From assembly GCF_036507355.1 (NCBI RefSeq), contig NZ_AP027877.1: a DNA stretch of 64,000 nt. The stretch is one strand, 5' to 3'. The translations under genes and the position numbers were made by a program. This DNA is from Escherichia coli (GTDB lineage: Bacteria > Pseudomonadota > Gammaproteobacteria > Enterobacterales > Enterobacteriaceae). A model generated the notes under the pieces. The model made no database searches. It had not been told where the DNA came from and was given only the letters and a program-made list of their open reading frames with translations. Shown piece by piece: positions 18,407 through 54,488 of this stretch; the stretch's first letter is position 1; every line of letters starts with the position of its first letter.

Positions 18407-19231
18407 ATGCAGCAGTTACAGAACATTATTGAAACCGCTTTTGAACGCCGTGCCGAGATCACGCCAGCCAATGCAGACACCGTTACCCGCGAAGCGGTAA
18501 ATCAGGTGATCACCCTGCTGGATTCCGGCGCACTGCGTGTAGCGGAAAAAATTGACGGTCAGTGGGTGACGCATCAGTGGTTGAAAAAAGCGGTGCTGCT
18601 CTCTTTCCGTATTAATGATAATCAGGTGATCGAAGGGGCAGAAAGCCGCTACTTCGACAAAGTGCCGATGAAATTCGCCGACTACGACGAAGCACGTTTC
18701 CAGAAAGAAGGCTTCCGCGTTGTACCACCTGCGGCGGTACGTCAGGGTGCGTTTATTGCCCGTAACACCGTGCTGATGCCGTCTTACGTCAACATCGGCG
18801 CATATGTTGATGAAGGCACCATGGTTGATACCTGGGCGACCGTCGGTTCTTGTGCGCAGATTGGTAAAAACGTCCACCTTTCCGGTGGCGTGGGCATCGG
18901 CGGTGTGCTGGAACCGCTGCAGGCTAACCCAACCATCATTGAAGATAATTGCTTCATCGGCGCGCGCTCTGAAGTGGTTGAAGGGGTGATTGTCGAAGAA
19001 GGTTCCGTCATCTCTATGGGCGTATACATTGGTCAGAGCACCCGTATTTACGACCGTGAAACCGGCGAAATCCACTACGGTCGCGTTCCGGCGGGGTCTG
19101 TGGTTGTTTCAGGTAATCTGCCGTCGAAAGATGGCAAATACAGCCTCTACTGTGCGGTTATCGTTAAGAAAGTTGACGCGAAAACTCGCGGCAAAGTCGG
19201 CATTAACGAACTGCTGCGTACCATCGACTAA
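18407..19231 (+). CDS. dapD: Tetrahydrodipicolinate N-succinyltransferase
   Basis: 274-aa [38 protein letters not shown]..., hexapeptide repeats. Confidence 0.95.
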
Positions 19232-19243
19232 AAGTATGCACAC

Positions 19244-19271
19244 GGGCAGCACGACGCTGCCCGATTTTTTT
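19244..19271 (+). terminator. Rho-independent terminator downstream of dapD
   Basis: GGGCAGC-ACGAC-GCTGCCC hairpin followed by GATTTTTTT. Confidence 0.7.
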
Positions 19272-19284
19272 GCAGGGATGAGCG

Positions 19285-20097
19285 ATGATTTCACGCAGAT
19301 GTTTGTTACTGGCTGCCGCCGCAACGTTAACTGCCGGATCAGGCTTCGGCTATATGCGTTATTGGGAACCAGGTTGGCTCGAATTAACCCATCAGCGCAT
19401 CGCCTTTTTTAAAGACAAAGCCGCACCCTTCAAAATTCTTTTTCTGGCAGATCTCCATTACTCTCGTTTTGTTCCTTTAAGCCTAATTTCTGACGCGATT
19501 GCTCTTGGCATAGAACAAAAGCCCGATTTGATATTGCTGGGTGGCGACTACGTATTATTTGATATGCCGCTGATTTTTTCGGCGTTTAGTAACGTACTCT
19601 CCCCCCTTGCCGAATGTGCGCCGACGTTTGCCTGCTTCGGCAACCACGATCGCCCTGTTGGTACTGAAAAAAATCACTTAATTGGCGAGACGTTGAAATC
19701 AGTGGGCATCACGGTGTTGTTTAACCAGGCTACGGTGATCGCCACGCCGAACAGACAATTCGAACTGGTAGGCACCGGTGATTTATGGGCCGGACAATGC
19801 AAACCACCTCCCGCCAGCGAAGCAAATCTGCCTCGTCTGGTGCTGGCACATAATCCCGACAGCAAAGAAGTCATGCGTGATGAACCCTGGGATCTGATGC
19901 TGTGCGGCCATACTCATGGCGGGCAACTGCGCGTACCGTTGGTTGGTGAACCTTTTGCCCCTGTCGAAGATAAACGTTACGTCGCCGGATTAAATGCCTT
20001 TGGCGAAAGACACATCTACACAACCCGTGGCGTGGGCTGTTTGTATGGTTTGCGTCTGAACTGCCGCCCGGAAGTAACGATGCTGGAACTGGTGTAG
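19285..20097 (+). CDS. yaeI: Calcineurin-like metallophosphoesterase (phosphodiesterase YaeI)
   Basis: 270-aa ORF with twin-arginine-like N-terminus and GDY/GNHD/GHTH metallophosphatase motifs. Confidence 0.85.
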   Translation: MISRRCLLLAAAATLTAGSGFGYMRYWEPGWLELTHQRIAFFKDKAAPFKILFLADLHYSRFVPLSLISDAIALGIEQKPDLILLGGDYVLFDMPLIFSAFSNVLSPLAECAPTFACFGNHDRPVGTEKNHLIGETLKSVGITVLFNQATVIATPNRQFELVGTGDLWAGQCKPPPASEANLPRLVLAHNPDSKEVMRDEPWDLMLCGHTHGGQLRVPLVGEPFAPVEDKRYVAGLNAFGERHIYTTRGVGCLYGLRLNCRPEVTMLELV

Positions 20098-20733: not shown

Positions 20734-21861
20734 CTACCGCTCTTCATCCAGTTGTAACGCCACATACAGCAGCAACCTGTCATCAAAATTGCCCAAATCA
20801 AGCCCGGTCAGTTCCGATATACGATTAAGCCGATACTCCAGGGTATTACGATGAATAAACAACGCCTTTGACGTTGCCAGCGGTTGCACATTGTGACGAA
20901 ACCACGCCGCCAGCGGTCGCGCCAGTTCGTTGGCCTGCCAGTCGCCACGCAAACTGTCGAGTAACACAGGTAACATCAGATCCTGATAAAAATAGCAGCG
21001 ACTTTCTGGCATCCGCTGTTTACCCACCACCATCGTCGTTTTCGCCGTACGATAGGATCGGGCAATACTGCCAGGACCGGTAAAATAGTTGCCCAGTGAA
21101 ACGCGAAAACGCAGCTGGCCGTACTCTTTCATGCGGGTAATCAGTTGTTCAACTCGCTTACGATGATCTTCTGCATCCCAGCGCCCAAAAGAGTTCAACG
21201 CCGGTTTCAACACCACCATTTCGGTTAGCGAGACAATCGCCACCAGATTATTACGCTCGGGCGTAGTCAGCGCGTTTTGCAGTTGTTGTAACTCCGCCAT
21301 TGCGCTGTCCACACCAAGCTGACCGCAGTCGACCTCAACAATAGCCACCACTCGCGGTTGATTGAGATCGATCCCCAGCCGTTGCGCCCATTCAGTAAGT
21401 GCGGGAGTATTCTCCTCTGCCTGAATCAGGTTCATCACCAGTTCCTCCCGCAAACGGCTATCCTGCGCCAACAAGTGCATCAACCGCGACTGTTCCAGCA
21501 TCATTTCAGCCGTCATGCAGACCAGTTCGCCATATTTACGCAGATTCTCTGGTTCACCTGTCAGGCCAATTACGCCGACAATTTCACCTTCCAGCCGTAA
21601 CGGTAGATTAATCCCTTGCCGCACACCGTGCAGATGACGTGCCACCGCGTCATCGATATCGACGACTCGTCCCTGTGAAAGTACCAGCAATGCACCTTCG
21701 TGCAATTCACCAATACGCTCACGATCGCCGCTGCCGATAATTCGCCCACGGGCATCCATTACGTTGATATTGGTATCGATGATGCGCATGGTACGTGCCA
21801 CGATATCCTGCGCCATTTTGGTATCAAGATGCCAGCCAGCCATAAGTCCTCCGTTATGCAC
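20734..21861 (-). CDS. cdaR: Carbohydrate diacid regulator CdaR (SdaR); start uncertain (GTG 21861 or ATG 21843)
   Basis: ORF with C-terminal PucR-type HTH (ALFIHRNTLEYRLNRISELTG); in-frame TAA at 21865..21867 caps the frame; ATG at 21843 is preceded by GGAGGA. Confidence 0.85.
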   Translation of the reverse strand: MHNGGLMAGWHLDTKMAQDIVARTMRIIDTNINVMDARGRIIGSGDRERIGELHEGALLVLSQGRVVDIDDAVARHLHGVRQGINLPLRLEGEIVGVIGLTGEPENLRKYGELVCMTAEMMLEQSRLMHLLAQDSRLREELVMNLIQAEENTPALTEWAQRLGIDLNQPRVVAIVEVDCGQLGVDSAMAELQQLQNALTTPERNNLVAIVSLTEMVVLKPALNSFGRWDAEDHRKRVEQLITRMKEYGQLRFRVSLGNYFTGPGSIARSYRTAKTTMVVGKQRMPESRCYFYQDLMLPVLLDSLRGDWQANELARPLAAWFRHNVQPLATSKALFIHRNTLEYRLNRISELTGLDLGNFDDRLLLYVALQLDEER

Positions 21862-21997: not shown

Positions 21998-23422
21998 TTA
22001 CTGCATTAACAGGTAGATGGTGCTGTCGCCGCGCTGAATGTTCAGTGCCAGCACAGACGGTTTGCTGTCGAGAACTTTACGCAGTTCAGCGATGTTTTTC
22101 ACTGCCTGCTGGTTCGCGCCAATAATCACATCACCTTTCTTCAGGCCGATCTGCGCAGCCGGAGTGCCCGTTTTCACGTTGTTCACTACCACGCCCTGAT
22201 CTTTGCCTTTGTTGCTCATCTCAGCGCCTTCAATGCCGTTGAAGATGGAGCTGGAATCAACCTGATTCTGGCTGCTCTGCTGCAGTTCCAGGTTCACGTT
22301 AACCTGCTTACCGTCGCGCAGTAAGCCCAGGGTCAGTTTGCTGCCCACCGGCATAGTACCCACCTGAGCACGCAGTGCGGCAAAGCTGCTGATCGGCTTA
22401 CCGTTCAGTGAGGTGATCACGTCACCCGCTTTAATGCCCGCTTTTGCAGCGGAGGAATTAGGCAGAACCTGGCTTACGAAAGCACCGCGCTGGGCGTCAA
22501 CTTTCATCGCTTTCGCCAGTTCGGAGTTCAGCTCAGTCCCCATAATACCCAGCTCACCGCGTTTCACCTGGCCGTATTCCACCATCTGCGAGGTCAGGTT
22601 TTTCACCATGTTGCTCGGGATTGCAAAACCGATACCGATGTTGCCACCGTCCGGTGCGAGGATCGCGGTGTTGATACCGATCAGTTCGCCGTTCAGGTTA
22701 ACCAGCGCACCACCGGAGTTACCACGGTTGATCGCTGCATCGGTCTGGATGAAGTTTTCGTAGTTTTCGGCATTCAGGCCGCTACGCCCCAGCGCAGAGA
22801 CAATCCCGGAAGTTACCGTCTCGCCCAGACCAAACGGGTTACCAATCGCTACGGTGTAATCACCCACGCGCAGTGCATCAGAATCCGCCATCTTAATTGC
22901 GGTCAGGTTTTTCGGATTCTGGATTTGGATCAGCGCGATATCAGAGCGCGGATCTTTGCCAACCATCTTCGCGTCGAACTTACGACCATCGCTCAGCTGG
23001 ACTTTAATCACCGTCGCGTTATCAACAACGTGGTTGTTGGTGACGACATAGCCTTTATCGGCATCAATGATGACGCCGGAACCCAGCGCCATGAATTTCT
23101 GTTGCTGGCCGCCACCATTACCGCCCTGGCCACCCTGGCAGAACGGAGAGCTCTGGAACGGAGAACCTTCCTGGCAGAACGGAGAATCATCACCGAAGAA
23201 CTGCTGGAAATTACGCGGCATACGCGGCGTATTAACGGTTGTGCTACCTTCTACGTTAATGCTGACCACTGAAGGCATCACCTTTTCGAGCATCGGTGCA
23301 AGGCTTGGCATCTGCTGGGCTGTCGTTGCTGAAGAAGTCTCAGCCGCCGTTGCAGAGAGCGGAGATAACGCCAAACCTAAACTCAGAGCCAGTGCACTCA
23401 GTGCTAATGTGGTTTTTTTCAT
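21998..23422 (-). CDS. degP: Periplasmic serine endoprotease/chaperone DegP (HtrA)
   Basis: 474-aa ORF, signal peptide MKKTTLALSALALSLGLALSPLSATA, trypsin-like domain (GNSGGAL) + two PDZ domains. Confidence 0.95.
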   Translation of the reverse strand: MKKTTLALSALALSLGLALSPLSATAAETSSATTAQQMPSLAPMLEKVMPSVVSINVEGSTTVNTPRMPRNFQQFFGDDSPFCQEGSPFQSSPFCQGGQGGNGGGQQQKFMALGSGVIIDADKGYVVTNNHVVDNATVIKVQLSDGRKFDAKMVGKDPRSDIALIQIQNPKNLTAIKMADSDALRVGDYTVAIGNPFGLGETVTSGIVSALGRSGLNAENYENFIQTDAAINRGNSGGALVNLNGELIGINTAILAPDGGNIGIGFAIPSNMVKNLTSQMVEYGQVKRGELGIMGTELNSELAKAMKVDAQRGAFVSQVLPNSSAAKAGIKAGDVITSLNGKPISSFAALRAQVGTMPVGSKLTLGLLRDGKQVNVNLELQQSSQNQVDSSSIFNGIEGAEMSNKGKDQGVVVNNVKTGTPAAQIGLKKGDVIIGANQQAVKNIAELRKVLDSKPSVLALNIQRGDSTIYLLMQ

Positions 23423-23464
23423 GTATTTCAGTCTCGATTAACAGATAACGCAAAATTGCTGTGT

Positions 23465-29423: not shown

Positions 29424-30704
29424 ATGAGTAAGTCTGAAAATCTTTACAGCGCAGCGCGCGAGCTGATCCCTGGCGGTGTGAACTCCCCTGTTCGCGCCTT
29501 TACTGGCGTGGGCGGCACTCCACTGTTTATCGAAAAAGCGGACGGCGCTTATCTGTACGATGTTGATGGCAAAGCCTATATCGATTATGTCGGTTCCTGG
29601 GGGCCGATGGTGCTGGGCCATAACCATCCGGCGATCCGCAATGCCGTGATTGAAGCCGCCGAGCGTGGTTTAAGCTTTGGTGCACCAACCGAAATGGAAG
29701 TGAAAATGGCGCAACTGGTGACCGAACTGGTCCCGACCATGGATATGGTGCGCATGGTGAACTCCGGCACCGAGGCGACGATGAGCGCCATCCGCCTGGC
29801 CCGTGGTTTTACCGGTCGCGACAAAATTATTAAATTTGAAGGTTGTTACCACGGTCACGCTGACTGCCTGCTGGTAAAAGCCGGTTCTGGCGCACTCACG
29901 TTAGGCCAGCCAAACTCGCCGGGCGTTCCGGCAGATTTCGCCAAACATACCTTAACCTGTACTTATAACGATCTGGCTTCTGTACGCGCCGCGTTTGAGC
30001 AATACCCGCAAGAGATTGCCTGTATTATCGTCGAGCCGGTGGCAGGCAATATGAACTGTGTTCCGCCGCTGCCAGAGTTCCTGCCAGGTCTGCGTGCGCT
30101 GTGTGACGAATTTGGCGCATTGCTGATCATCGATGAAGTGATGACCGGTTTCCGCGTAGCGCTAGCTGGCGCACAGGATTATTACGGTGTGGAACCGGAT
30201 CTCACCTGCCTGGGCAAAATCATCGGCGGTGGAATGCCGGTAGGCGCATTCGGTGGTCGTCGTGATGTAATGGATGCGCTGGCCCCGACGGGTCCGGTCT
30301 ATCAGGCGGGTACGCTTTCCGGTAACCCGATTGCGATGGCAGCCGGTTTCGCCTGTCTGAATGAAGTCGCGCAGCCGGGCGTTCACGAAACGCTGGATGA
30401 GCTGACAACACGTCTGGCAGAAGGTCTGCTGGAAGCGGCAGAAGAAGCCGGAATTCCGCTGGTGGTAAACCACGTTGGCGGCATGTTCGGTATTTTCTTT
30501 ACCGACGCCGAGTCCGTGACGTGCTATCAGGATGTGATGGCCTGTGACGTCGAGCGTTTTAAGCGTTTCTTCCATATGATGTTGGATGAAGGTGTTTACC
30601 TGGCACCGTCAGCGTTTGAAGCGGGCTTTATGTCTGTGGCGCACAGCATGGAAGATATCAATAACACCATCGATGCTGCACGTCGGGTATTTGCGAAGTT
30701 GTGA
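29424..30704 (+). CDS. hemL: Glutamate-1-semialdehyde 2,1-aminomutase
   Basis: 426-aa [29 protein letters not shown]..., PLP aminotransferase class III. Confidence 0.95.
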
Positions 30705-30711
30705 TAATTTT

Positions 30712-30740
30712 GCCTCGCCCACCGGGCGAGGCATTCTATT
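30712..30740 (+). terminator. Rho-independent terminator downstream of hemL (overlaps fhuB stop)
   Basis: GCCTCGCCC-ACCG-GGCGAGGC hairpin followed by ATTCTATT. Confidence 0.6.
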
Positions 30741-32721
30741 AACGGCTCTGCTTTCTCAGCAAATAGATAAAATATGGCGCGCCGATAAAGGTCGACAGCA
30801 GCCCCGCCGGGATCTGGAATGGAAACAGCACCATCCGCCCACACCAGTCAGCGAACACCAGCAGTAAACCACCCACCAGCGCCGAAATTACGATGTGTGG
30901 CATCGTCCGTCGAAAGCCCATCATCCGCGCAATATGCGGTGCCATTAAACCCACAAAACTCAACGGTCCAATAGTCATCGTCGCGGTCGCCGTCAGGCAA
31001 GCCGCTAACAGCAGCAGCGCAATTCGCGTCGGCGTCAGCGCCATTCCTACGGCTCGGGCGGTATCACCACCCAGCGGTAAAATGGTCAGCCAGCGGCGGT
31101 ACAGCGGGGTAATCGCCAGCAAAATCACCATCACAATTCCGGTACGCCAGACCTGCGCATCGGTCGCGTTGTAGGTCGAACCGGAAATCCAGGTCAGCAC
31201 TTGCGCCATTCGCGGGTCCCCACTTGCCTGCAACATCATCAAAAGCATGGTGAACGCGGTACTTAACGCCATCCCCGCCAGTAACATGCGGTGTGGGGAA
31301 AATCCACCGCGCCCGGCGGCGATCATAATAATCAACAGCGTCACCGCGGCACCGATACTTCCCGCGGGTAACAGCCAGCCAAAAGCATTACCCGGTACCA
31401 GAAACAGCATCAGTACCACGCCAAACGCTGCGCCGGAGCTAATCCCCAGCACTTCCGGGCTTGCCATCGGGTTGCCGGTCAGTCGCTGAATAATACAGCC
31501 CGCCACCGCCAGCATGACGCCCGCAAACAGCGCCGCCATAATTCGCGGCCAGCGCCAGGGCATTAAATCCTCGAGCAACGCCCCGCTCGCCCACGTCCAG
31601 CCGTGCGCATCACGACCAAACGACAGCGCCACTACCACAGCCATCAACAGCAGCACGCCGCCCGCGAGGGCAAACGCCAGCACATGTTGGCGTTCAGCCG
31701 CGACACGATCGTTGACCTTCATATCCGGCGCGCTAATGCTGCGTAAACGCGGCAACAGCCACAGTAGCAGCGGCGCACCGATCAACGCAGTGACCGAACC
31801 GGTGGACACTTCCATCCACACGCGAGTCAGCCAGAGGATGATTTGATCGGAAAGCCAGAGGATCAGCGCACCAATCAGCGACGCCAGCATCAACCGTGGC
31901 AGCAGACGCCGCGCCCCCAGCATTTTTGCCAGCAGCGGCGCGAACAACCCGATAAAGCCGATAATCCCCACAGCGTTCACCAGCAGCGCACTGATGACAA
32001 TCGCCAGCGACAGCGCCGCCAGACGCGTCAGCGACAAGGCCAGCCCGAGATTGCGTGCCACACCATCATCAAGCCCCATCAGGGTTAACGGGCGAAGTAG
32101 CAATAACGTCAGCATCACGCCGCCCAGCAGCTGCGGCCATAAACGCTCAACGCCGCCCCAGTCGGTTTGCGTCAGCGTTCCAGTGCTCCACAGAAACATG
32201 CTTTGCAACTGGTCATGATGGAAGATAACCAGTAATTGATTGATTGCCCCACAATAAAGGCTCACTACCAGCCCCGCGAGAATCAGCGTTACCGGCGACA
32301 GCCGTTTCCCCCACGCGACGCCAAAGACAATTAAGCCAACAACACAAGCCCCTGCCAGCGCAGCAAACTGGCTCGCCATCGCACCAGGGATCGCCCAGAG
32401 CGTCGTGACGGTAATCCCCAGTTGCGCGCCTGTAGCAACGCCCAACGTCGTCGGTTCCGCCAGCGGGTTACGCAGCACTTGCTGAAACAGCACGCCCACC
32501 AGCCCCAGGCCCGCACCCACCAGCAGCGAAATCGCCAGACGCGGCAACAAGCTGTAGTGAAAAATCATCTGCTCGATGACGTTAATATCCGGCGACCAGG
32601 CGGCCTGCGCCCACTGGCTACGCGGCAGCGCCTGCGAAAAGTTCATCCAGGTCAGCGCCGTAGCGACAATCACCAGCAGCGCCAGCAATAACGCCGGGAA
32701 AAGCGCAATTCGTTTACTCAC
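30739..32721 (-). CDS. fhuB: Ferric hydroxamate ABC transporter permease
   Basis: 660-aa duplicated FecCD-type permease; fhuACDB order. Confidence 0.95.
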   Translation of the reverse strand: MSKRIALFPALLLALLVIVATALTWMNFSQALPRSQWAQAAWSPDINVIEQMIFHYSLLPRLAISLLVGAGLGLVGVLFQQVLRNPLAEPTTLGVATGAQLGITVTTLWAIPGAMASQFAALAGACVVGLIVFGVAWGKRLSPVTLILAGLVVSLYCGAINQLLVIFHHDQLQSMFLWSTGTLTQTDWGGVERLWPQLLGGVMLTLLLLRPLTLMGLDDGVARNLGLALSLTRLAALSLAIVISALLVNAVGIIGFIGLFAPLLAKMLGARRLLPRLMLASLIGALILWLSDQIILWLTRVWMEVSTGSVTALIGAPLLLWLLPRLRSISAPDMKVNDRVAAERQHVLAFALAGGVLLLMAVVVALSFGRDAHGWTWASGALLEDLMPWRWPRIMAALFAGVMLAVAGCIIQRLTGNPMASPEVLGISSGAAFGVVLMLFLVPGNAFGWLLPAGSIGAAVTLLIIMIAAGRGGFSPHRMLLAGMALSTAFTMLLMMLQASGDPRMAQVLTWISGSTYNATDAQVWRTGIVMVILLAITPLYRRWLTILPLGGDTARAVGMALTPTRIALLLLAACLTATATMTIGPLSFVGLMAPHIARMMGFRRTMPHIVISALVGGLLLVFADWCGRMVLFPFQIPAGLLSTFIGAPYFIYLLRKQSR

Positions 32722-39453: not shown

Positions 39454-39540
39454 GCTTTTTCTCCGCAATATTCAGGCGCAAAAGCCCGATTTTCTGTTCT
39501 TCTGTTACAAGACAGAAGAAGATATCTCTCAAAATTTGCT

Positions 39541-39640
39541 TTTCTCCCTCTCCCTGTGGGAGAGGGCCGGGGTGAGGGCATCAGCGCGCACATTACCCCT
39601 CACCCTATCCCTCTCCCCATAGGGGCGAGGGGACTGCTCA
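39541..39640. repeat. GC-rich palindromic intergenic repeats (REP/BIME-like) between hrpB and mrcB
   Basis: Three adjacent imperfect palindromes: CTCTCCC-TGT-GGGAGAG; GGGTGAGGG...CCCTCACCC; CCCTCTCCCC-ATA-GGGGCGAGGG. Confidence 0.4.
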
Positions 39641-46930: not shown

Positions 46931-47076
46931 TTTATTAATTTCGTGAATATAAATAATTTCCGAAAATCACATCATTCCAATTCCCAAACCAATCCTATTA
47001 GAGTAGACACTAGCTACATCAATTAATATTTAAATGCATCCTACCCATCTCCTTACACGAAACATCTCCATTTTGA

Positions 47077-47117
47077 AATTTAAATTTACTTAACCCTGAT
47101 TTAAGTAAATTTAAATT
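47077..47117. promoter_or_regulatory. 17-bp perfect palindrome in AT-rich yadN upstream region (candidate operator)
   Basis: AATTTAAATTTACTTAA -7 nt spacer CCCTGAT- TTAAGTAAATTTAAATT; ~175 bp upstream of yadN start. Confidence 0.4.
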
Positions 47118-47290
47118 GCTCAAGTAACTTTAAAATGCACAATATGCGTCCTAATGAGGAATGATTGTAAATTTAGGTAACAAACAATCATTTCTCATTA
47201 ATGTTTGAATATATCTTTATATATTTGAGCCATGAATAGTCATACTTCAAATTAATGAACTACCTTATGGAATATTATTCAAGGATTATT

Positions 47291-47875
47291 ATGTCGAAAA
47301 AATTAGGTTTTGCGCTGTCCGGCTTGATGTTAGCAATGGTTGCTGGTAATGCTTCTGCAGCACTGGACGGTGGCCAATTAAATATCAGCGGTCTGGTAGT
47401 TGATAACACCTGTGAAACCCGTGTTGATGGTGGCAACAAAGATGGCCTGGTGCTGCTGCAAACTGCAACTGTTAGTGAAATCACTGCAGGCGTACTGAAT
47501 GACACCGTAGGTGCTAAAGCTAAACCTTTCAGCATCACCGTTGACTGCAGCAATGCGAACCCGAATCCTGGTAGCACTGCTAAAATGACCTTCGGTTCCG
47601 TGTTCTTTGGCAATAGCAAAGGGACTCTGAACAACGATATGTCTATTAATACCCCGGCTGATGGTGTAAATATTGCCCTGCACAATATTGATGGTTCTAC
47701 TATCAAACAGGTTCAAATTAACAACCCAGGTGATGCTTACATTAAAACCATGGATGCAACCTCAAAAACTGCAACTTTTGATTTTAAAGCATCCTATGTT
47801 CGTGCTGAAACAAGCACAGCACCAACTGCTGGTTATGTTAAAACCAACACTGCATATACCATTACTTACCAGTAA
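47291..47875 (+). CDS. yadN: Fimbrial major subunit-like protein YadN
   Basis: ORF 47255..47875; 194-aa product from [23 protein letters not shown] (signal peptide), fimbrial subunit C-terminus ...YTITYQ. Confidence 0.85.
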
Positions 47876-47980
47876 TCATTCGTTAGATTCATAAAACGAA
47901 TATATTTGGGAGATAACATTCAACTTACTTAGTAGTGGAATATTACTCCCTATTTTAATTAACTCTGTCAGGAATGGTTT

Positions 47981-48721
47981 ATGTTTTTAAACGCTAAACA
48001 TACTGCAGCATTATGTTTCGCCGCTTGTATGAGTTTGAGTACATCGGCAATAGCAGATATCGTAATTTCAGGAACTCGCGTAATTTATAAAAGCGATCAA
48101 AAAAGCGTGAACGTTCGTCTGGAAAATAAAGGGAATAATCCGTTACTTGTTCAGAGCTGGCTGGATACTGGCGACGACAGTGCTGAACCGGGGAGCATTA
48201 AAGTTCCATTTACCGCCACCCCACCGGTTTCACGTATTGATGCCAAACGTGGTCAAACCATTAAATTGATGTACACGGCTTCTTCGCCTCTGCCAAAAGA
48301 CAGAGAAAGTGTTTTCTGGTTTAACGTACTTGAAGTTCCACCCAAGCCTGACGCCGATAAAGTCGCTAATCAGAGCCTTCTGCAATTAGCTTTCCGTACG
48401 CGTATCAAACTGTTTTATCGCCCGGAAGGTTTAAACGGACTGCCAACTGATGCACCAGCTGCACTGAAATGGTCATGGACAACCTCTGCTGGCAAAACTG
48501 CATTGCGCGTCGCAAATCCGACGCCGTATCACGTGTCATTCAGTAGTGGTGATTTAGTCGCCAATGGCAAAACCTACCCACTGGACGTCAAAATGGTGGC
48601 CCCGCTGAGTGAAGAAACCTTCTACATAAAAGGCATGAGTGGTAAAGCAAGTTCGGCAAAAGTGCATTTCTTCGCCATAAATGACTTTGGTGGCGCAATT
48701 GAAGGCAATGCCAGCCTGTAA
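47981..48721 (+). CDS. yadV: Periplasmic fimbrial chaperone (PapD-like)
   Basis: 246-aa ORF, signal peptide, RVIYKSDQKSVNVRLENKGNNPLLVQSW chaperone N-domain. Confidence 0.9.
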   Translation: MFLNAKHTAALCFAACMSLSTSAIADIVISGTRVIYKSDQKSVNVRLENKGNNPLLVQSWLDTGDDSAEPGSIKVPFTATPPVSRIDAKRGQTIKLMYTASSPLPKDRESVFWFNVLEVPPKPDADKVANQSLLQLAFRTRIKLFYRPEGLNGLPTDAPAALKWSWTTSAGKTALRVANPTPYHVSFSSGDLVANGKTYPLDVKMVAPLSEETFYIKGMSGKASSAKVHFFAINDFGGAIEGNASL

Positions 48722-48755
48722 CTAAATCAGGAATAAACGCAGCAGGAAGCACAAC

Positions 48756-51356
48756 GTGTCCAGAAAAATCATAAAAACGCATAATAACAAACTTACTTAT
48801 ATAGCCTCGTTTTGCGCATTGCTGTTAAGCCCCTGTGCCATAAGCGCTGAACACGTTGAATATGATAATACCTTTTTGATGGGGCAAGATGCTTCTAACA
48901 TCGACCTTAGTCGGTATACCGAAGGTAACCCTACCTTGCCCGGCGTGTATGACGTCAGTGTTTATGTCAACGATCAACCAGTTATCAGCCAAAGCATCTC
49001 CTTTATTACCCTCGAAGGTAAGAAAAATGCGCAGGCTTGTATCACGCTGAAGAATTTATTGCAATTTCACATTAACCAGCCTGATATAAAAGACGAGAAT
49101 GCCATCCTTCTTCAACGAGAAGAAGAGCTAGGGGACTGTCTCGATCTGGGGAATGTTATTCCTCAAGCTTCCGTTCATTACGACGTTAATGATCAACGAC
49201 TGGACATCAACGTTCCTCAAGCCTGGGTAATGAAGAATTACCAAAACTATGTTGATCCATCATTGTGGGAAAACGGTATTAACGCTGCAATGCTGTCCTA
49301 CAATGTCAACGCATATCACAGCGAAATACCAGACAGAAAAAACGACAGTGTTTATGCGGCATTTAACGGCGGTATAAATCTGGGGGCATGGCGGCTTCGT
49401 GCCACCGGTAACTACAACTGGATGACCGATGCAGGCACTAATTACGATTTTCAAAATCGCTATTTGCAGCGCGACCTGGCCTCTTTGCGTTCACAGTTAG
49501 TTGTGGGTGAGTCATACACAACTGGGGAAACCTTTGATTCTGTCAGTATTCGCGGTGTTCGCTTATACAGTGACAGCCGAATGCTACCACCTACATTAGC
49601 CAGTTTTGCGCCAATTATTCATGGTGTTGCTAACACCAACGCAAAAGTCACCATTACCCAGGGTGGTTATAAAATCTATGAAACTACCGTGCCGCCGGGC
49701 GCATTTGTCATTGATGATGTAAGCCCATCAGGCTACGGCAGCGATCTCATTGTCACAATCGAAGAGTCTGATGGCACAAAGCGAACTTTTTCCCAGCCAT
49801 TTTCTTCGGTCGTTCAGATGTTACGTCCAGGTGTGGGAAGATGGGACATCAGTGCAGGTAAGATCTTAAAAGACGATATTCAAAATGAGCCTAATTTGTT
49901 CCAGGCCAGTTATTACTATGGTCTGAACAACCTCCTGACGGGGTATACCGGTATTCAGATTACCGATAATAACTATACTGCCGGGCTGCTTGGTCTTGGT
50001 CTGAATACCACATACGGTGCGTTTTCAGTCGATGTAACCCATTCAGATGTGCAAATTCCGGATGATAAAACCTACCGGGGGCAAAGCTATCGCCTTTCCT
50101 GGAATAAGTTATTTGAAGATACCAGAACTTCGCTCAATATCGCGGCTTACCGTTATTCTACCCAGAATTATCTGGGGCTTAACGATGCCCTGACACTGAT
50201 CGACGAAGTAAAACATCCTGAACAGGACCTGGAACCTAAAAATATGCGTAACTATTCTCGCATGAAAAATCAGGTTACGGTCAGTATTAACCAACCGCTG
50301 AAATATGGAAAGGAAGACTACGGCTCATTCTATCTTTCCGGAAGTTGGTCTGATTATTGGGCTTCCGGTCAAAATAATACCAATTACTCCCTCGGCTACA
50401 GTAACAGCGCATCGTGGGGCAGCTACAGCATTAGTGCTCAGCGCTCCCGGGATCAAGACGGCGATAATGAAGATAGCATCTATCTAAGCTTTAGTATTCC
50501 TATCGAAAAATTACTGGGTACAGAACATCGTAATTCTGGTTTTCAGACCATTGATACTCAGTTAAGTAGTGATTTCGATGGCAGCAACCAACTCAGTATC
50601 AGTAGTAGTGGTTTTAGCGACGATAACCGTATCAGTTATAGCGTCAATACGGGCTATTCGATGATGAAGTCCAGCGATGATTTGAGCTATATCGGTGGGT
50701 ATGCGAGCTATGAATCTCCCTGGGGAACACTTGCCAGTTCAGTTTCCGCCAGCAGCGATAATAGCCGTCAGATCTCATTTAATACCGATGGTGGATTTGT
50801 TTTGCATAGCGGCGGCCTGACCTTCAGTAATGATAGCTTCAGCGATTCCGATACTTTGGCGGTTATACAAGCGCCAGGAGCTAAAGGGGCACGCATTAAC
50901 TATGGTAATAGCACGGTAGACCGTTGGGGATATGGCGTTACTAATGCACTTTCGCCATACCATGAAAACCGAATTGCACTCGATATTAACGGTCTCGAAA
51001 ATGACGTTGAGCTGAAAAGTACCAGTGCTGTTGCCGTACCACGCCAGGGGTCTGTTGTCTTTGCTGGTTTTGAAACTGTCCAGGGGCAATCGGCTATCAT
51101 GAACATCAAGCGTACAGATGGTAAAAACATTCCGTTTGCCGCTGATATTTATGACGAAAACGGCAATATCATTGGTAACGTTGGGCAAGGTGGTCAGGCC
51201 TTTGTTCGAGGTATAGAACAACAAGGCAATATACGAATCAACTGGCTTGACGAGGGTAAACCTGTTACTTGCCTTGCTCATTACCAACAGAGCGCAGCAC
51301 CAGAAAAAATAGCGCAATCTATTATTTTGAATGGAATTAGTTGTCAGATTCAGTAA
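48756..51356 (+). CDS. htrE: Fimbrial outer-membrane usher protein
   Basis: 866-codon ORF (GTG start), usher family (PapC/FimD-like). Confidence 0.9.
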   Translation: MSRKIIKTHNNKLTYIASFCALLLSPCAISAEHVEYDNTFLMGQDASNIDLSRYTEGNPTLPGVYDVSVYVNDQPVISQSISFITLEGKKNAQACITLKNLLQFHINQPDIKDENAILLQREEELGDCLDLGNVIPQASVHYDVNDQRLDINVPQAWVMKNYQNYVDPSLWENGINAAMLSYNVNAYHSEIPDRKNDSVYAAFNGGINLGAWRLRATGNYNWMTDAGTNYDFQNRYLQRDLASLRSQLVVGESYTTGETFDSVSIRGVRLYSDSRMLPPTLASFAPIIHGVANTNAKVTITQGGYKIYETTVPPGAFVIDDVSPSGYGSDLIVTIEESDGTKRTFSQPFSSVVQMLRPGVGRWDISAGKILKDDIQNEPNLFQASYYYGLNNLLTGYTGIQITDNNYTAGLLGLGLNTTYGAFSVDVTHSDVQIPDDKTYRGQSYRLSWNKLFEDTRTSLNIAAYRYSTQNYLGLNDALTLIDEVKHPEQDLEPKNMRNYSRMKNQVTVSINQPLKYGKEDYGSFYLSGSWSDYWASGQNNTNYSLGYSNSASWGSYSISAQRSRDQDGDNEDSIYLSFSIPIEKLLGTEHRNSGFQTIDTQLSSDFDGSNQLSISSSGFSDDNRISYSVNTGYSMMKSSDDLSYIGGYASYESPWGTLASSVSASSDNSRQISFNTDGGFVLHSGGLTFSNDSFSDSDTLAVIQAPGAKGARINYGNSTVDRWGYGVTNALSPYHENRIALDINGLENDVELKSTSAVAVPRQGSVVFAGFETVQGQSAIMNIKRTDGKNIPFAADIYDENGNIIGNVGQGGQAFVRGIEQQGNIRINWLDEGKPVTCLAHYQQSAAPEKIAQSIILNGISCQIQ

Positions 51357-51375
51357 CAACAGGGAATTTCACATA

Positions 51376-51945
51376 ATGAGAATAACACTGCATAAATTGG
51401 CAATACTGACGGGATTATTTTTATCATCCTCTGTACTTGCAACAGACATTAATGTTGATTTTACAGCAACCGTAAAAGCATCAACTTGTAATATTACGCT
51501 AACAGGTAACAATGTCACCAGTGACGGGAATGACACCTACACACTAACATTCCCTGGTACTATTGGCCTGGATAAAATTGCAAATAAAACTACTCAGGCA
51601 CAGGCGAATTTTAATCTGGTTGCCAGCGGTTGTACCACAGGCGTCAGTAAAATCACCACCAAACTCAGTGGAAGTGCTTCGGGAAGTTCACCCGCATTAA
51701 TCATTCCGTCAACTTCCGACACTACATCAACCACCGATTATATTGGTATGGGTATAAAAAGAATTGATACTGATGATTCGACATTTTTAACCCCAAACAG
51801 TGCACAAAGCATTATATGGAGTGGAACAGAAATTAGCAGCACTGAGGGTCTTAAACTGACCGTTGCATTGCGCGAAACCAGTGCTGGCAGGGGCGTTCCT
51901 GGCGATTTCCGCGCCCAGGCAACATTCAATTTCATTTATGAATAA
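51376..51945 (+). CDS. yadM: Fimbrial subunit-like protein YadM
   Basis: ORF 51331..51945; 189-aa product from MRITLHKLAILTGLFLSSSVLA. Confidence 0.8.
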   Translation: MRITLHKLAILTGLFLSSSVLATDINVDFTATVKASTCNITLTGNNVTSDGNDTYTLTFPGTIGLDKIANKTTQAQANFNLVASGCTTGVSKITTKLSGSASGSSPALIIPSTSDTTSTTDYIGMGIKRIDTDDSTFLTPNSAQSIIWSGTEISSTEGLKLTVALRETSAGRGVPGDFRAQATFNFIYE

Positions 51946-51959
51946 CAGGGATGATAATA

Positions 51960-52565
51960 ATGAAATCTAAAACATTACGTTATGGACTGCCTGCTGGTAT
52001 TATTTTGACGGCATCCCTATTCACCAGCCAATTGTTTGCAGCGACAGATAACGTTAAGCTGAATGTTAAAGCAACCGTAGAGATGGGAACCTGTACCGCC
52101 AGCCTGGTGGATGACAATGATCAACCTTTAACTGTTGTTGCATTTGGTGACGCTTATATTCCTGAAATTGATGCCAAAACAAAAATTAAAACTTTTAAGT
52201 TACAGTTTAAGGACTGTGCAGGCGTTCCTAATAAAAAGGCCTTGGTCAAATTAACTAAACGCGCAACGTGTGAAGGAACGGCCAACGATGGGCCTGGATT
52301 TGCAAACGGCTCCGCTGCGGCTGATAAAGCAAGCGCTGTGGCGGTTGAAGTATGGAGTACCACGGCACCCGCTACAGGTGGCGCGACTCAATTTAGCTGT
52401 GTAACACCGGTCGCTCAGGAAGTGAATATCTCCGCTGCAACAGGAAATACATCGGTATATCATCCTATGAGTGCACGCCTGGTGGTAGAGAAAAATAAAA
52501 GCAGTACCGACATCACTGCCGGTCCGTTTTCGGCACCTGCGACATTTTCTATCACCTATAACTAA
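51960..52565 (+). CDS. yadL: Fimbrial subunit-like protein YadL
   Basis: ORF 51951..52565; product from MKSKTLRYGLPAGIILTASLFTSQLFA; C-terminal ...FSITYN. Confidence 0.8.
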   Translation: MKSKTLRYGLPAGIILTASLFTSQLFAATDNVKLNVKATVEMGTCTASLVDDNDQPLTVVAFGDAYIPEIDAKTKIKTFKLQFKDCAGVPNKKALVKLTKRATCEGTANDGPGFANGSAAADKASAVAVEVWSTTAPATGGATQFSCVTPVAQEVNISAATGNTSVYHPMSARLVVEKNKSSTDITAGPFSAPATFSITYN

Positions 52566-52591
52566 CAGGCCATTAAAGTCAGGGACCGATT

Positions 52592-53188
52592 ATGCTTTCC
52601 TCTCAACTAAAAATTAAGATAAAAACAAGTCTGTTCCTGGCATTATTGTTTGCCACATCCAGCCCTGTATATGCAGGACTGGATGTGGATATGGTTGCCA
52701 ATATCAAGAACAGTACATGTAAAAGTGGCCTCAGCAACCTTGGTAATATCGACCTTGGTGTGGTGGGTGTGGAGTATTTTTCTGGTAATGTCACGGCTGA
52801 AGACAATTATCCCGGCGGGAGAGAGTTCACTGTCACTGTGACTGACTGCGCCATCCAGGGTTCTGGAAATGTGTTAAATCAGTTACATATTAACTTTAAA
52901 CCACTCAATGGCGTGATGGCGACTGGCTCTCAGCAAATTTTTGCAAATGAAAATGTCGCCGGGGCTCAAAACGTAGGTGTAGTCATATTTTCCATTCAGG
53001 ATCCGGCTAATACATTTAATGTTCTTAATCCAGCGGGCAGTTCTCGTTCAATTTATCCGGTGATGACGGCTGATTTAAACAATTCATCCTGGAAATTCTA
53101 CACACGAATGCAAAAAATTAACCCAGCGCTAAATATCGCATCGGGTCAGGTCAAAAGCACTGTGCTGATTGATATTTATTATGAATAG
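52592..53188 (+). CDS. yadK: Fimbrial subunit-like protein YadK
   Basis: 198-aa ORF with signal peptide; C-terminal ...VLIDIYYE. Confidence 0.8.
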   Translation: MLSSQLKIKIKTSLFLALLFATSSPVYAGLDVDMVANIKNSTCKSGLSNLGNIDLGVVGVEYFSGNVTAEDNYPGGREFTVTVTDCAIQGSGNVLNQLHINFKPLNGVMATGSQQIFANENVAGAQNVGVVIFSIQDPANTFNVLNPAGSSRSIYPVMTADLNNSSWKFYTRMQKINPALNIASGQVKSTVLIDIYYE

Positions 53189-53237
53189 TCTCATGCATAA
53201 GAAATATAACTAAACACACATATTGGGAATGATACAA

Positions 53238-54488
53238 ATGAGAGCCATTCTTAACCACTTAATTTTATTATTATTTATATCCAGTTTTTCGCTCTATGCT
53301 GCCAACAATACAATATTTGTCGTTGGAGCAGGAAACGCCGATAGTTTTGCTGGTCCTTCTGGCAATGGAAGAGCAACATTCCGCTATTCGACGGCCAGTA
53401 ATAATTTAGTATTTTATAAACCAACCGGACCTGGCGTTGTTAAAACAAATGTAAAACTCTACTGGTCACAACTCGACACAGCAAGCGGGGGGAATACAGG
53501 GCTTGTATATTGCAACAGGGCTGGCTCTGCCAGTGACGAACCCATTCTCATTAAGCCTAAAATGGTAGAGTCTGGTTTAACTTATGGCGGTAATAAGCTA
53601 TTTAAAACCTCCGTGACCGGCCTTTACTACACGCTAACTATTTCTAATATTTGGACAGCATGGGACACAACAACTAATATCTCTTCTATCGTTGTCGGTA
53701 ATCGCCCGGATGGTGAGTATGATGGTTTCCGTTTTCAGGTTAGTAATTCTTATGTTAATCAAGGCTGTAATAATGCCGGCACAACCAGTAAATATGCGGC
53801 CATTGGTGGCATAATGCAAAGCCTTACCATCGAATTTTATACCGATGGCACATTTGATCCGGTGCAAAATCAGAAAGTTACCTTATTACGTACTGCTGAC
53901 CACCTCTACGAATTTAAAACGGAAGGAGCAGGTGGCGGTATCAACGAACATAGCAAATCTATTTATGTCGATTTTGATTTGGTAAATATCACGATTACAT
54001 TACCGACCTGTTTTACTTCTGTTCTTACTGGAACATCTGTTAGTGGTTCTACGGTAAAAATGGGGGAATACACCTCTGAGGAAATTAAAAATGGAGCGAC
54101 ACCTGTTCCTTTCGATATTTCCCTGCAAAACTGTATACGGGTAAGAAATATTGAAACAAAGCTTGTTTCCGCAAAAGTTGGCACTGAGAACAGAAAACTA
54201 CTCGGTAATACTCTCACCGGTAATGATGCAGCAAAGGGAGTAGGTGTATTAGTTGAGGGCTTGCTATCCGTTAAAAGTCTGCAAATGGTTCTGGAGCCGA
54301 ATAACGCCTCTTCCGTGTATAAAGATTATGAGTATGAAGACGATGCAACTGAGGGGATATATCCCGATAAAGGAAACGGTACAACACAAGCACTCCATTT
54401 CCAGGCTACATTACAGCAGGATGGAACTATACCAATAGAATCAGGTGAGTTTAAAGCCACCAGTACTTTCCAGGTGACCTACCCTTAA
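53238..54488 (+). CDS. yadC: Fimbrial tip adhesin-like protein YadC (start uncertain, 53223-53250)
   Basis: ORF 53223..54488; signal peptide MRAILNHLILLLFISSFSLYA; two-domain adhesin-like size, C-terminal pilin domain ...TFQVTYP. Confidence 0.8.
   Translation: MRAILNHLILLLFISSFSLYAANNTIFVVGAGNADSFAGPSGNGRATFRYSTASNNLVFYKPTGPGVVKTNVKLYWSQLDTASGGNTGLVYCNRAGSASDEPILIKPKMVESGLTYGGNKLFKTSVTGLYYTLTISNIWTAWDTTTNISSIVVGNRPDGEYDGFRFQVSNSYVNQGCNNAGTTSKYAAIGGIMQSLTIEFYTDGTFDPVQNQKVTLLRTADHLYEFKTEGAGGGINEHSKSIYVDFDLVNITITLPTCFTSVLTGTSVSGSTVKMGEYTSEEIKNGATPVPFDISLQNCIRVRNIETKLVSAKVGTENRKLLGNTLTGNDAAKGVGVLVEGLLSVKSLQMVLEPNNASSVYKDYEYEDDATEGIYPDKGNGTTQALHFQATLQQDGTIPIESGEFKATSTFQVTYP

Follow-up and report, generated by a model that had tools for sequence, protein, structure and literature searches.

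The intergenic regions of Escherichia coli are reportedly polymorphic for REP and BIME sequences, both in presence or absence and in copy number, an observation credited to the 1997 work of Bachellier and colleagues in Genetics. REPs are divided into the classes y, z1 and z2, they have been reported as terminators or attenuators and as stabilisers of mRNA, and the make-up of BIMEs differs from strain to strain (Ton-Hoang et al. 2012, PMC3333891). At another E. coli locus, a second copy of rpnC_S downstream of rpnC has already been described, and the number of a four-residue repeat sets the pairing of small protein and full-length Rpn in neutralisation (Zhong et al. 2023, PMC10327210).

We compared a 64-kb stretch of E. 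coli DNA, hereafter the window, with the K-12 reference genome MG1655, and concentrated on the spacer between the genes hemL and fhuB. This locus resembles the described REP/BIME polymorphism in that K-12 carries a y and z1 pair and a decayed REP between convergent genes, which are absent in other strains. It differs in that the REP-free allele is no empty site but holds an unrelated, conserved hairpin, so that the alleles replace each other rather than representing an insertion and its empty site. Our reading, which we hold to be highly probable, is that there are two unrelated and long-lived spacer forms, that the window carries a terminator-type hairpin representing the older, family-level state, and that the REP form constitutes a second allele, also old and distinct from the first. 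All of the features found in the window are of known kinds, namely BIME polymorphism, a terminator hairpin, a repeat-mediated deletion, an ERIC element and a second rpnC_S, and the sole mildly unusual point is the long coexistence of the two hemL-fhuB spacer forms.

The hemL-fhuB spacer in the window and in K-12

BLAST alignment against MG1655 138-208 kb placed the window at MG1655 204353..140696 in reverse complement, with 98.9% identity across the housekeeping parts and about 90-92% across the fhu-yad part. This agrees with the preliminary description of the window, which had put it at approximately 141-204 kb of MG1655, reverse complemented (140,696-204,353 by alignment), and had listed differences in length from K-12 at hemL-fhuB, cdaR-degP and panC-rpnC. 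That the intergenic lengths might in fact be identical was examined in the alignment and discarded, all three length differences being real.

In the window, hemL (426 aa) occupies 29424..30704 on the + strand and ends TGA TAA, while fhuB (660 aa) occupies 30739..32721 on the - strand. The two genes are convergent and the spacer between them, measured from stop codon to stop codon, comprises 34 bp (30705..30738) and reads TAATTTT-GCCTCGCCC-ACC-GGGCGAGGC-ATTCTA. In MG1655 the ends of fhuB and hemL lie at 173444 and 173602, respectively, leaving a spacer of 157 bp (173445..173601); alignment thus returns the 34 bp, against ~157 bp in K-12, of the preliminary description. Strains of the short and the long form do not differ in the coding sequence that flanks the spacer, as far as either stop codon, and between the stop codons the 34-bp and 157-bp spacers have no alignable sequence in common.

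Read from hemL to fhuB, the K-12 spacer begins its series of three elements with a Y-type REP, GTCGGATGCGGCGTGAACGCCTTATCCGACCTAC, which is followed after a 15-nt linker by an inverted Z1-type REP, GTAGGCCCGATAAGACGCGCCAGCGTCGCATCGGGCA, and then by a third, decayed REP. In blastn-short scans with Y, Z1 and Z2 consensus sequences, the Y-REP (173555-173586) and the Z1-REP (173508-173539, on the strand opposite to Y) each matched their consensus at 31/32 positions. These are exactly the two strong REPs of the K-12 counterpart of the window, both lying in the hemL-fhuB spacer, and none of the three consensus sequences matched anywhere in the 64-kb window. The tetranucleotides GTAG and CTAC are present in the K-12 spacer and absent from that of the window, TAATTTTGCCTCGCCCACCGGGCGAGGCATTCTA. 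Moreover, additional copies of the REP portion of the K-12 spacer lie at unannotated intergenic sites around E. coli genomes, the whole 197-bp query with the K-12 spacer finding a median of 9 matching places per genome. The 157-bp spacer of K-12, with a y and an inverse z1 element, GTAG/CTAC and dispersed copies, is accordingly classed by its sequence as REP/BIME, whereas the 34-bp spacer of the window falls outside this class in its palindrome, which is perfect where REPs are imperfect palindromes of 30-40 nt, in its tetranucleotides and in its want of dispersed copies.

The shortness of the window's spacer had been put down to a missing REP element. This is right in that REPs are found in the K-12 spacer and none in the window, and wrong in that the two spacers are unrelated and that of the window has a hairpin of its own. 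For a REP to be missing in the literal sense, it must have been deleted from a K-12-like spacer in the window strain or its recent ancestors, leaving the 34 bp as a remnant. The window spacer is indeed 123 bp shorter and devoid of REPs, and the loss by excision of entire BIMEs in E. coli isolates, which Bachellier and colleagues are said to have found in the same 1997 study in Genetics, was counted in favour of deletion. However, a simple REP deletion was rejected on two grounds: no part of the 34-bp sequence can be aligned with the 157-bp one, and the hairpin does not occur in any of the REP-form spacers that were inspected.

Distribution and age of the two spacer forms

A 74-bp probe that spans the short spacer found one full-length match, with 0-4 mismatches over the 74 bp, in each of 3,699 of the 5,426 complete E. 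coli genomes (68%). The K-12 form, for which the 197-bp probe extended 20 bp into the coding sequence at either end, gave full-length matches in 1,701 of the 5,426, which leaves 26 genomes outside both forms. No variation in the hairpin was seen among O157:H7, Nissle, APEC O2-211 and AR_0085, while the window's own 74 bp are matched at 99% or more in 20 genomes only, the private differences of the window being a synonymous change in hemL, the change of TGATGA to TGATAA and one change in fhuB. AR_0085 is 100% identical to the window over the 74-bp hemL-fhuB region but has a full-length cdaR; this strain also lacks yaeI between dapD and yaeH (locus L003 9213-9526), and for these reasons it was discarded as the source of the window. 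Among genomes of the long form there are at least two old sub-types, represented by K-12 and MS14385, which differ at 13 of the 157 spacer positions (93.4% identity over the 197-bp probe).

These counts weigh on two alternative readings. A REP deletion in the window strain or its recent ancestors is at odds with a short form that is present in 68% of complete genomes, in lineages as distant as O157:H7, Nissle and APEC, and that matches the spacer of other genera; taken with the failure of the two spacers to align, this makes deletion very improbable. Repetitive REP clusters can be misassembled from short reads, and a cluster that had been collapsed or dropped during assembly could simulate a short spacer. 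Yet the window spacer is a distinct sequence and not a truncated REP, and the same 34 bp occur once each in the 3,699 complete genomes, which refutes an assembly artefact; we give that reading practically no credence.

For comparison with relatives outside E. coli, loci were fetched via FhuB, with one genome per species, and fhuB and hemL proved to be adjacent and convergent in 77 Enterobacteriaceae species; none of the loci bore the name of E. fergusonii, E. marmotae or E. ruysiae. The REP form is present in all four of the non-coli or divergent Escherichia lineages that were recovered, with spacers of 118 bp in E. albertii, 440 bp in E. whittamii, 157 bp in Escherichia sp. MOD1-EC7003 and 162 bp in SCPM-O-B-8794, a divergent strain labelled 'E. 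coli'. The coding flanks of these relatives are 89-96% identical to K-12 over the adjacent 300 bp (91-96% in SCPM-O-B-8794), and the REP form can be aligned from the hemL stop to the Y-Z1 pair in K-12, MS14385, MOD1-EC7003, SCPM-O-B-8794 and E. albertii. The MS14385 spacer is 95.5% identical to that of MOD1-EC7003 versus 91.8% to that of K-12, and its flanks are closer to K-12. In E. whittamii (locus L010 4495-4916) there are 4.6 tandem 92-bp Y-Z1 REP units, which represent BIME amplification at hemL-fhuB and which recall the variation in copy number between lineages that characterises REP/BIME polymorphism. As a further observation on the REP form, the Y-REP stem reads GCCGGAT...ATCCGGC in E. 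albertii versus GTCGGAT...ATCCGAC in the E. coli and clade alleles, a compensatory pair and therefore a sign that the REP hairpin at hemL-fhuB has been kept paired.

The hairpin of the window is found in other genera. Three Citrobacter species carry it in a 36-bp spacer and Intestinirhabdus alba in a 35-bp spacer (GCCTCGCCC GGC GGGCGAGGC), and in all of these the stem is as far from either stop codon as it is in the window. Kosakonia pseudosacchari and Enterobacter sp. Bisph1 have GCCTCTCCC...GGGAGAGGC; the stems in Kosakonia, though related, look like repeats of the boxC type and are possibly not orthologous. In the cross-genus alignment of the hairpin, which is a small sample, 98.8% of cells are paired and there are two compensatory pairs, G-C to U-A and C-G to U-A. 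Across the 77 species the spacer is occupied by the hairpin in 6, by REP-like sequences in about 25 and by boxC-like sequences in about 26, and other hairpins are among the remaining occupants; the REP-like repeats there are lineage-specific.

Some spacers in this sample are much longer. Atlantibacter spp. (loci L052, L055 and L069) have a 1.84-kb insert between fhuB and hemL, with room for one or two genes, and the spacer measures 533 bp in Enterobacter quasihormaechei (L057) and 538 bp in Klebsiella oxytoca (L080). The extra DNA at the E. quasihormaechei locus interrupts a boxC-like palindrome, which suggests that a small mobile element has inserted into the repeat.

Since the hairpin form is older than the genus, and the REP form older than E. 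coli, it follows that the window has not lost a REP. Both forms must be old, because the hairpin is common to Citrobacter and Intestinirhabdus and the REP form to other Escherichia. It is likewise wrong to take K-12 for the default state, given that the hairpin form is found in the majority of E. coli and is common to other genera.

The finding that all recovered non-coli Escherichia have the REP form does mean that this form could be ancestral within Escherichia and the hairpin re-introduced. The REP form would then have been fixed in the Escherichia ancestor, and E. coli would have regained the hairpin by recombination with DNA of another enterobacterial genus, whereupon it spread through most of the species. 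Within the genus the hairpin form has been seen in E. coli proper only, as this account would have it, and close copies of the stem exist in Citrobacter and Intestinirhabdus. However, the coding flanks of the short allele are typical of E. coli up to both stop codons, so that an import, if there was one, can have covered no more than tens of bp. In the Citrobacter and Intestinirhabdus loci sampled, moreover, the 6-7-nt arms that flank the stem are unlike those of E. coli (TGATTTT / ATTCTA), and no donor emerges from the comparison. An old polymorphism that has been retained explains the same data, and we consider a regain of the hairpin to be rather unlikely. As to how the two old forms came to be distributed in this manner, three accounts may be considered: E. 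coli may have kept both since before the Escherichia species split, the hairpin may have been regained by recombination, or REP alleles may have been exchanged between species.

Other differences from K-12 along the window

The cdaR-degP region had been described as ~48 bp shorter than in K-12, and the deficit is exactly 48 bp, but the missing bases belong to the coding sequence of cdaR; the intergenic gaps (154 bp for degP-cdaR and 88 bp for cdaR-yaeH) are equal in the window and K-12. The gene (20734..21843, - strand) encodes 369 aa versus 385, having lost 16 codons in frame between CGCTGGCG direct repeats, and its product is without RLKTMDNNGLLRRTLA just before the HTH_30 domain. The junction of the 48-bp deletion lies at 20908..20922 on the - strand, where one CGCTGGCG copy is left at 20908-20915. 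According to domain profiles, Diacid_rec, GGDEF_2 and HTH_30 are all above cut-offs in the shortened protein, and positions 3-58 of the 59 in the HTH_30 profile are still matched despite the 16-residue deletion; by its domains, the protein is predicted to remain of the CdaR/PucR type. When an 81-bp probe across the junction was compared with the 5,426 complete genomes, every top match was split into two pieces and spanned 129 bp, which is the undeleted state. The exact 369-aa CdaR is nonetheless on record as E. coli (BED23767.1), in at least 6 contigs. The loss of 48 bp probably arose as a slipped or recombined in-frame deletion, in an event unrelated to the spacer, and this rare deletion is a strain marker of a known kind.

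Across ten housekeeping genes there are 127 synonymous and 14 non-synonymous codon differences from K-12, a pattern that we read as natural divergence. No complete RefSeq E. coli is more than 99.1% identical to the window over positions 1-20000, and none is more than 98.1% identical over positions 36000-60000. Because the CdaR variant is on record as E. coli and the substitutions are mostly synonymous, we interpret the window as belonging to a natural E. coli lineage that is thinly sampled. A Shigella or an engineered genome was ruled out, with the CdaR variant deposited as E. coli and the substitutions overwhelmingly synonymous.

Between panC and rpnC, the excess of ~0.5 kb over K-12 that had been described for the window is borne out by a gap of 561 bp (56259..56819) versus 73 bp, or +488 bp. 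This gap contains the core of an ERIC element (56378..56461), in which the ERIC2 primer is exact at 56397-56418. At about 96% identity, copies of the 84-bp core are also present in other E. coli genomes, in intergenic DNA that carries no annotation; for the whole 631-bp query these genomes have a median of 5 matching places. Its primer site in a central inverted repeat and its dispersed intergenic copies identify the element as ERIC. It is like the ERIC/IRU elements in having an exact ERIC2 primer core and in being dispersed, and with no notable difference from them it is an ordinary copy.

The same gap holds a 71-aa ORF (56536..56751, - strand), 68 bp downstream of the rpnC stop, with homology to the C-terminus of RpnC (57% identity to residues 235-301 over 67 aa, E = 4e-22). 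In other genomes the ORF is annotated as 'RpnC/YadD family protein', and its homology to the Rpn C-terminus and its location indicate that it is probably a second rpnC_S small-protein gene. Pfam DUF4351 (PF14261), a domain that Zhong et al. (2023, PMC10327210) give for RpnS genes that are separate, was not matched in the 71-aa ORF, where the search returned only a sub-threshold DUF2802 at E <= 0.01. In rpnC itself (302 aa; 56820..57728, - strand), an extra 12 bp at 56961-56972 correspond to one added four-residue IEKG repeat relative to K-12. The arrangement is like that described by Zhong et al. (2023, PMC10327210), inasmuch as the ORF lies directly downstream of rpnC and RpnC has gained one IEKG repeat, and unlike it in that the downstream copy in the window has another flavour of repeat, GFQKGFQKGYKEG versus GIEKGIEKGIQQG.

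A REP was ruled out as the extra sequence between panC and rpnC, which consists of the ERIC element and the small gene. The ERIC element and the duplicated, putative rpnC_S gene of antitoxin type beside rpnC would reflect an event unrelated to the spacer, and both the extra gene and the altered number of repeats belong to known kinds of strain marker. Hence, of the conclusion that the window represents a non-K-12 E. coli with REP and intergenic polymorphism, the first part stands and the second requires amendment, the cdaR deletion being coding and the panC-rpnC addition not being REP.

Several other features of the window may be recorded. In the hrpB-mrcB gap, a pair of boxC-type palindromes of ~100 bp (39536..39634) is inverted relative to K-12, with 91/99 positions identical in the inverted alignment and 73/99 in the collinear one. 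The yad fimbrial operon (46974-53994) is only about 90% identical to K-12, and the yadC adhesin segment within it (53118-53994) has no alignment to K-12, as might be expected if the tip adhesin is of another allele. Rfam matches include CssrA (136.6 bits, 13560-13678, between tsf and rpsB) and two that are expected for the region, namely the t44 RNA upstream of rpsB (14508-14594) and the HtrA (degP) 5' UTR thermometer (23417-23462). A degenerate ERIC2-like site with 3 mismatches (13657-13678) overlaps the end of the CssrA match, so the CssrA sRNA family may be ERIC-derived.

The hairpin as a proposed 3' element

A terminator scan identified a perfect hairpin of 9-10 pairs, 8 of them G-C, with a 3-nt loop, at 30711..30733 on the + strand. 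It starts 7 nt past the hemL stop and is followed on the + strand by TTCTATTAAC, in which 5 of the next 8 bases are T, forming an interrupted U-tract. The terminator consensus scan called a terminator-like site on the + (hemL) strand and none on the - strand of the spacer, where the tail is AAAAUUAUCA; in the fhuB transcript the same palindrome folds and is then followed by AAAAUUA. The predicted RNA folds of the + and - strands have free energies of -26.6 and -20.6 kcal/mol, with z-scores of -5.85 and -4.31, respectively.

The hairpin is single copy in the window and in every fetched locus, and the short-spacer probe had one place per genome in the 3,699 genomes. A dispersed repeat family was rejected on this evidence, the hairpin being single copy within the limits of megablast searches, whose word size restricts the detection of isolated 21-nt copies. 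An Rfam search of the spacer returned no family, and the single chance-level match lay inside fhuB.

On the + strand, the G+C-rich stem-loop and the T-rich tail downstream of the stop codon are the features expected of an intrinsic terminator. Compared with intrinsic terminators of convergent genes, the window is alike in its G+C-rich perfect stem, its 3-nt loop and its T-rich tail on the hemL strand, and different in having an A-rich tail on the fhuB strand. Because A residues follow the stem on the fhuB strand, the hairpin would be neither a canonical nor a symmetrical bidirectional terminator, the opposite strand being without terminator features.

The hairpin with its U-rich tail, AUUCUAUU, is most likely the intrinsic terminator of hemL. 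The fhuACDB transcript would acquire a 3' stem-loop from the same palindrome, which may protect it against 3' exonucleases, and the same stem-loop may block read-through into the convergent gene. In K-12 the whole spacer would have been replaced by the BIME, one structured 3' element substituting for another. Terminating and stabilising roles of this sort have also been ascribed to REPs, so that the two alleles are plausibly equivalent in function.

A wider reading may be put forward tentatively, as a possibility that we find harder to credit than to doubt. The hairpin and the BIME might constitute a trans-specific dimorphism, in which interchangeable alleles predate the split of E. coli, E. 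albertii and the cryptic clades and have been maintained by balancing selection or by interspecies exchange, with hairpins as preferred sites of overwriting. REP, boxC and similar palindromic repeats may, if this were so, preferentially overwrite the terminator hairpins of convergent genes.

In the main, our results have little importance beyond correct annotation. K-12 represents the minority state at the hemL-fhuB locus, so that a sequence 'missing relative to K-12' is not to be taken for one that was lost. The locus also offers a clean natural case in which a terminator hairpin and a REP cluster serve as alternative 3' ends, and its two alleles could be used for comparing the effects of such elements on termination and mRNA stability.
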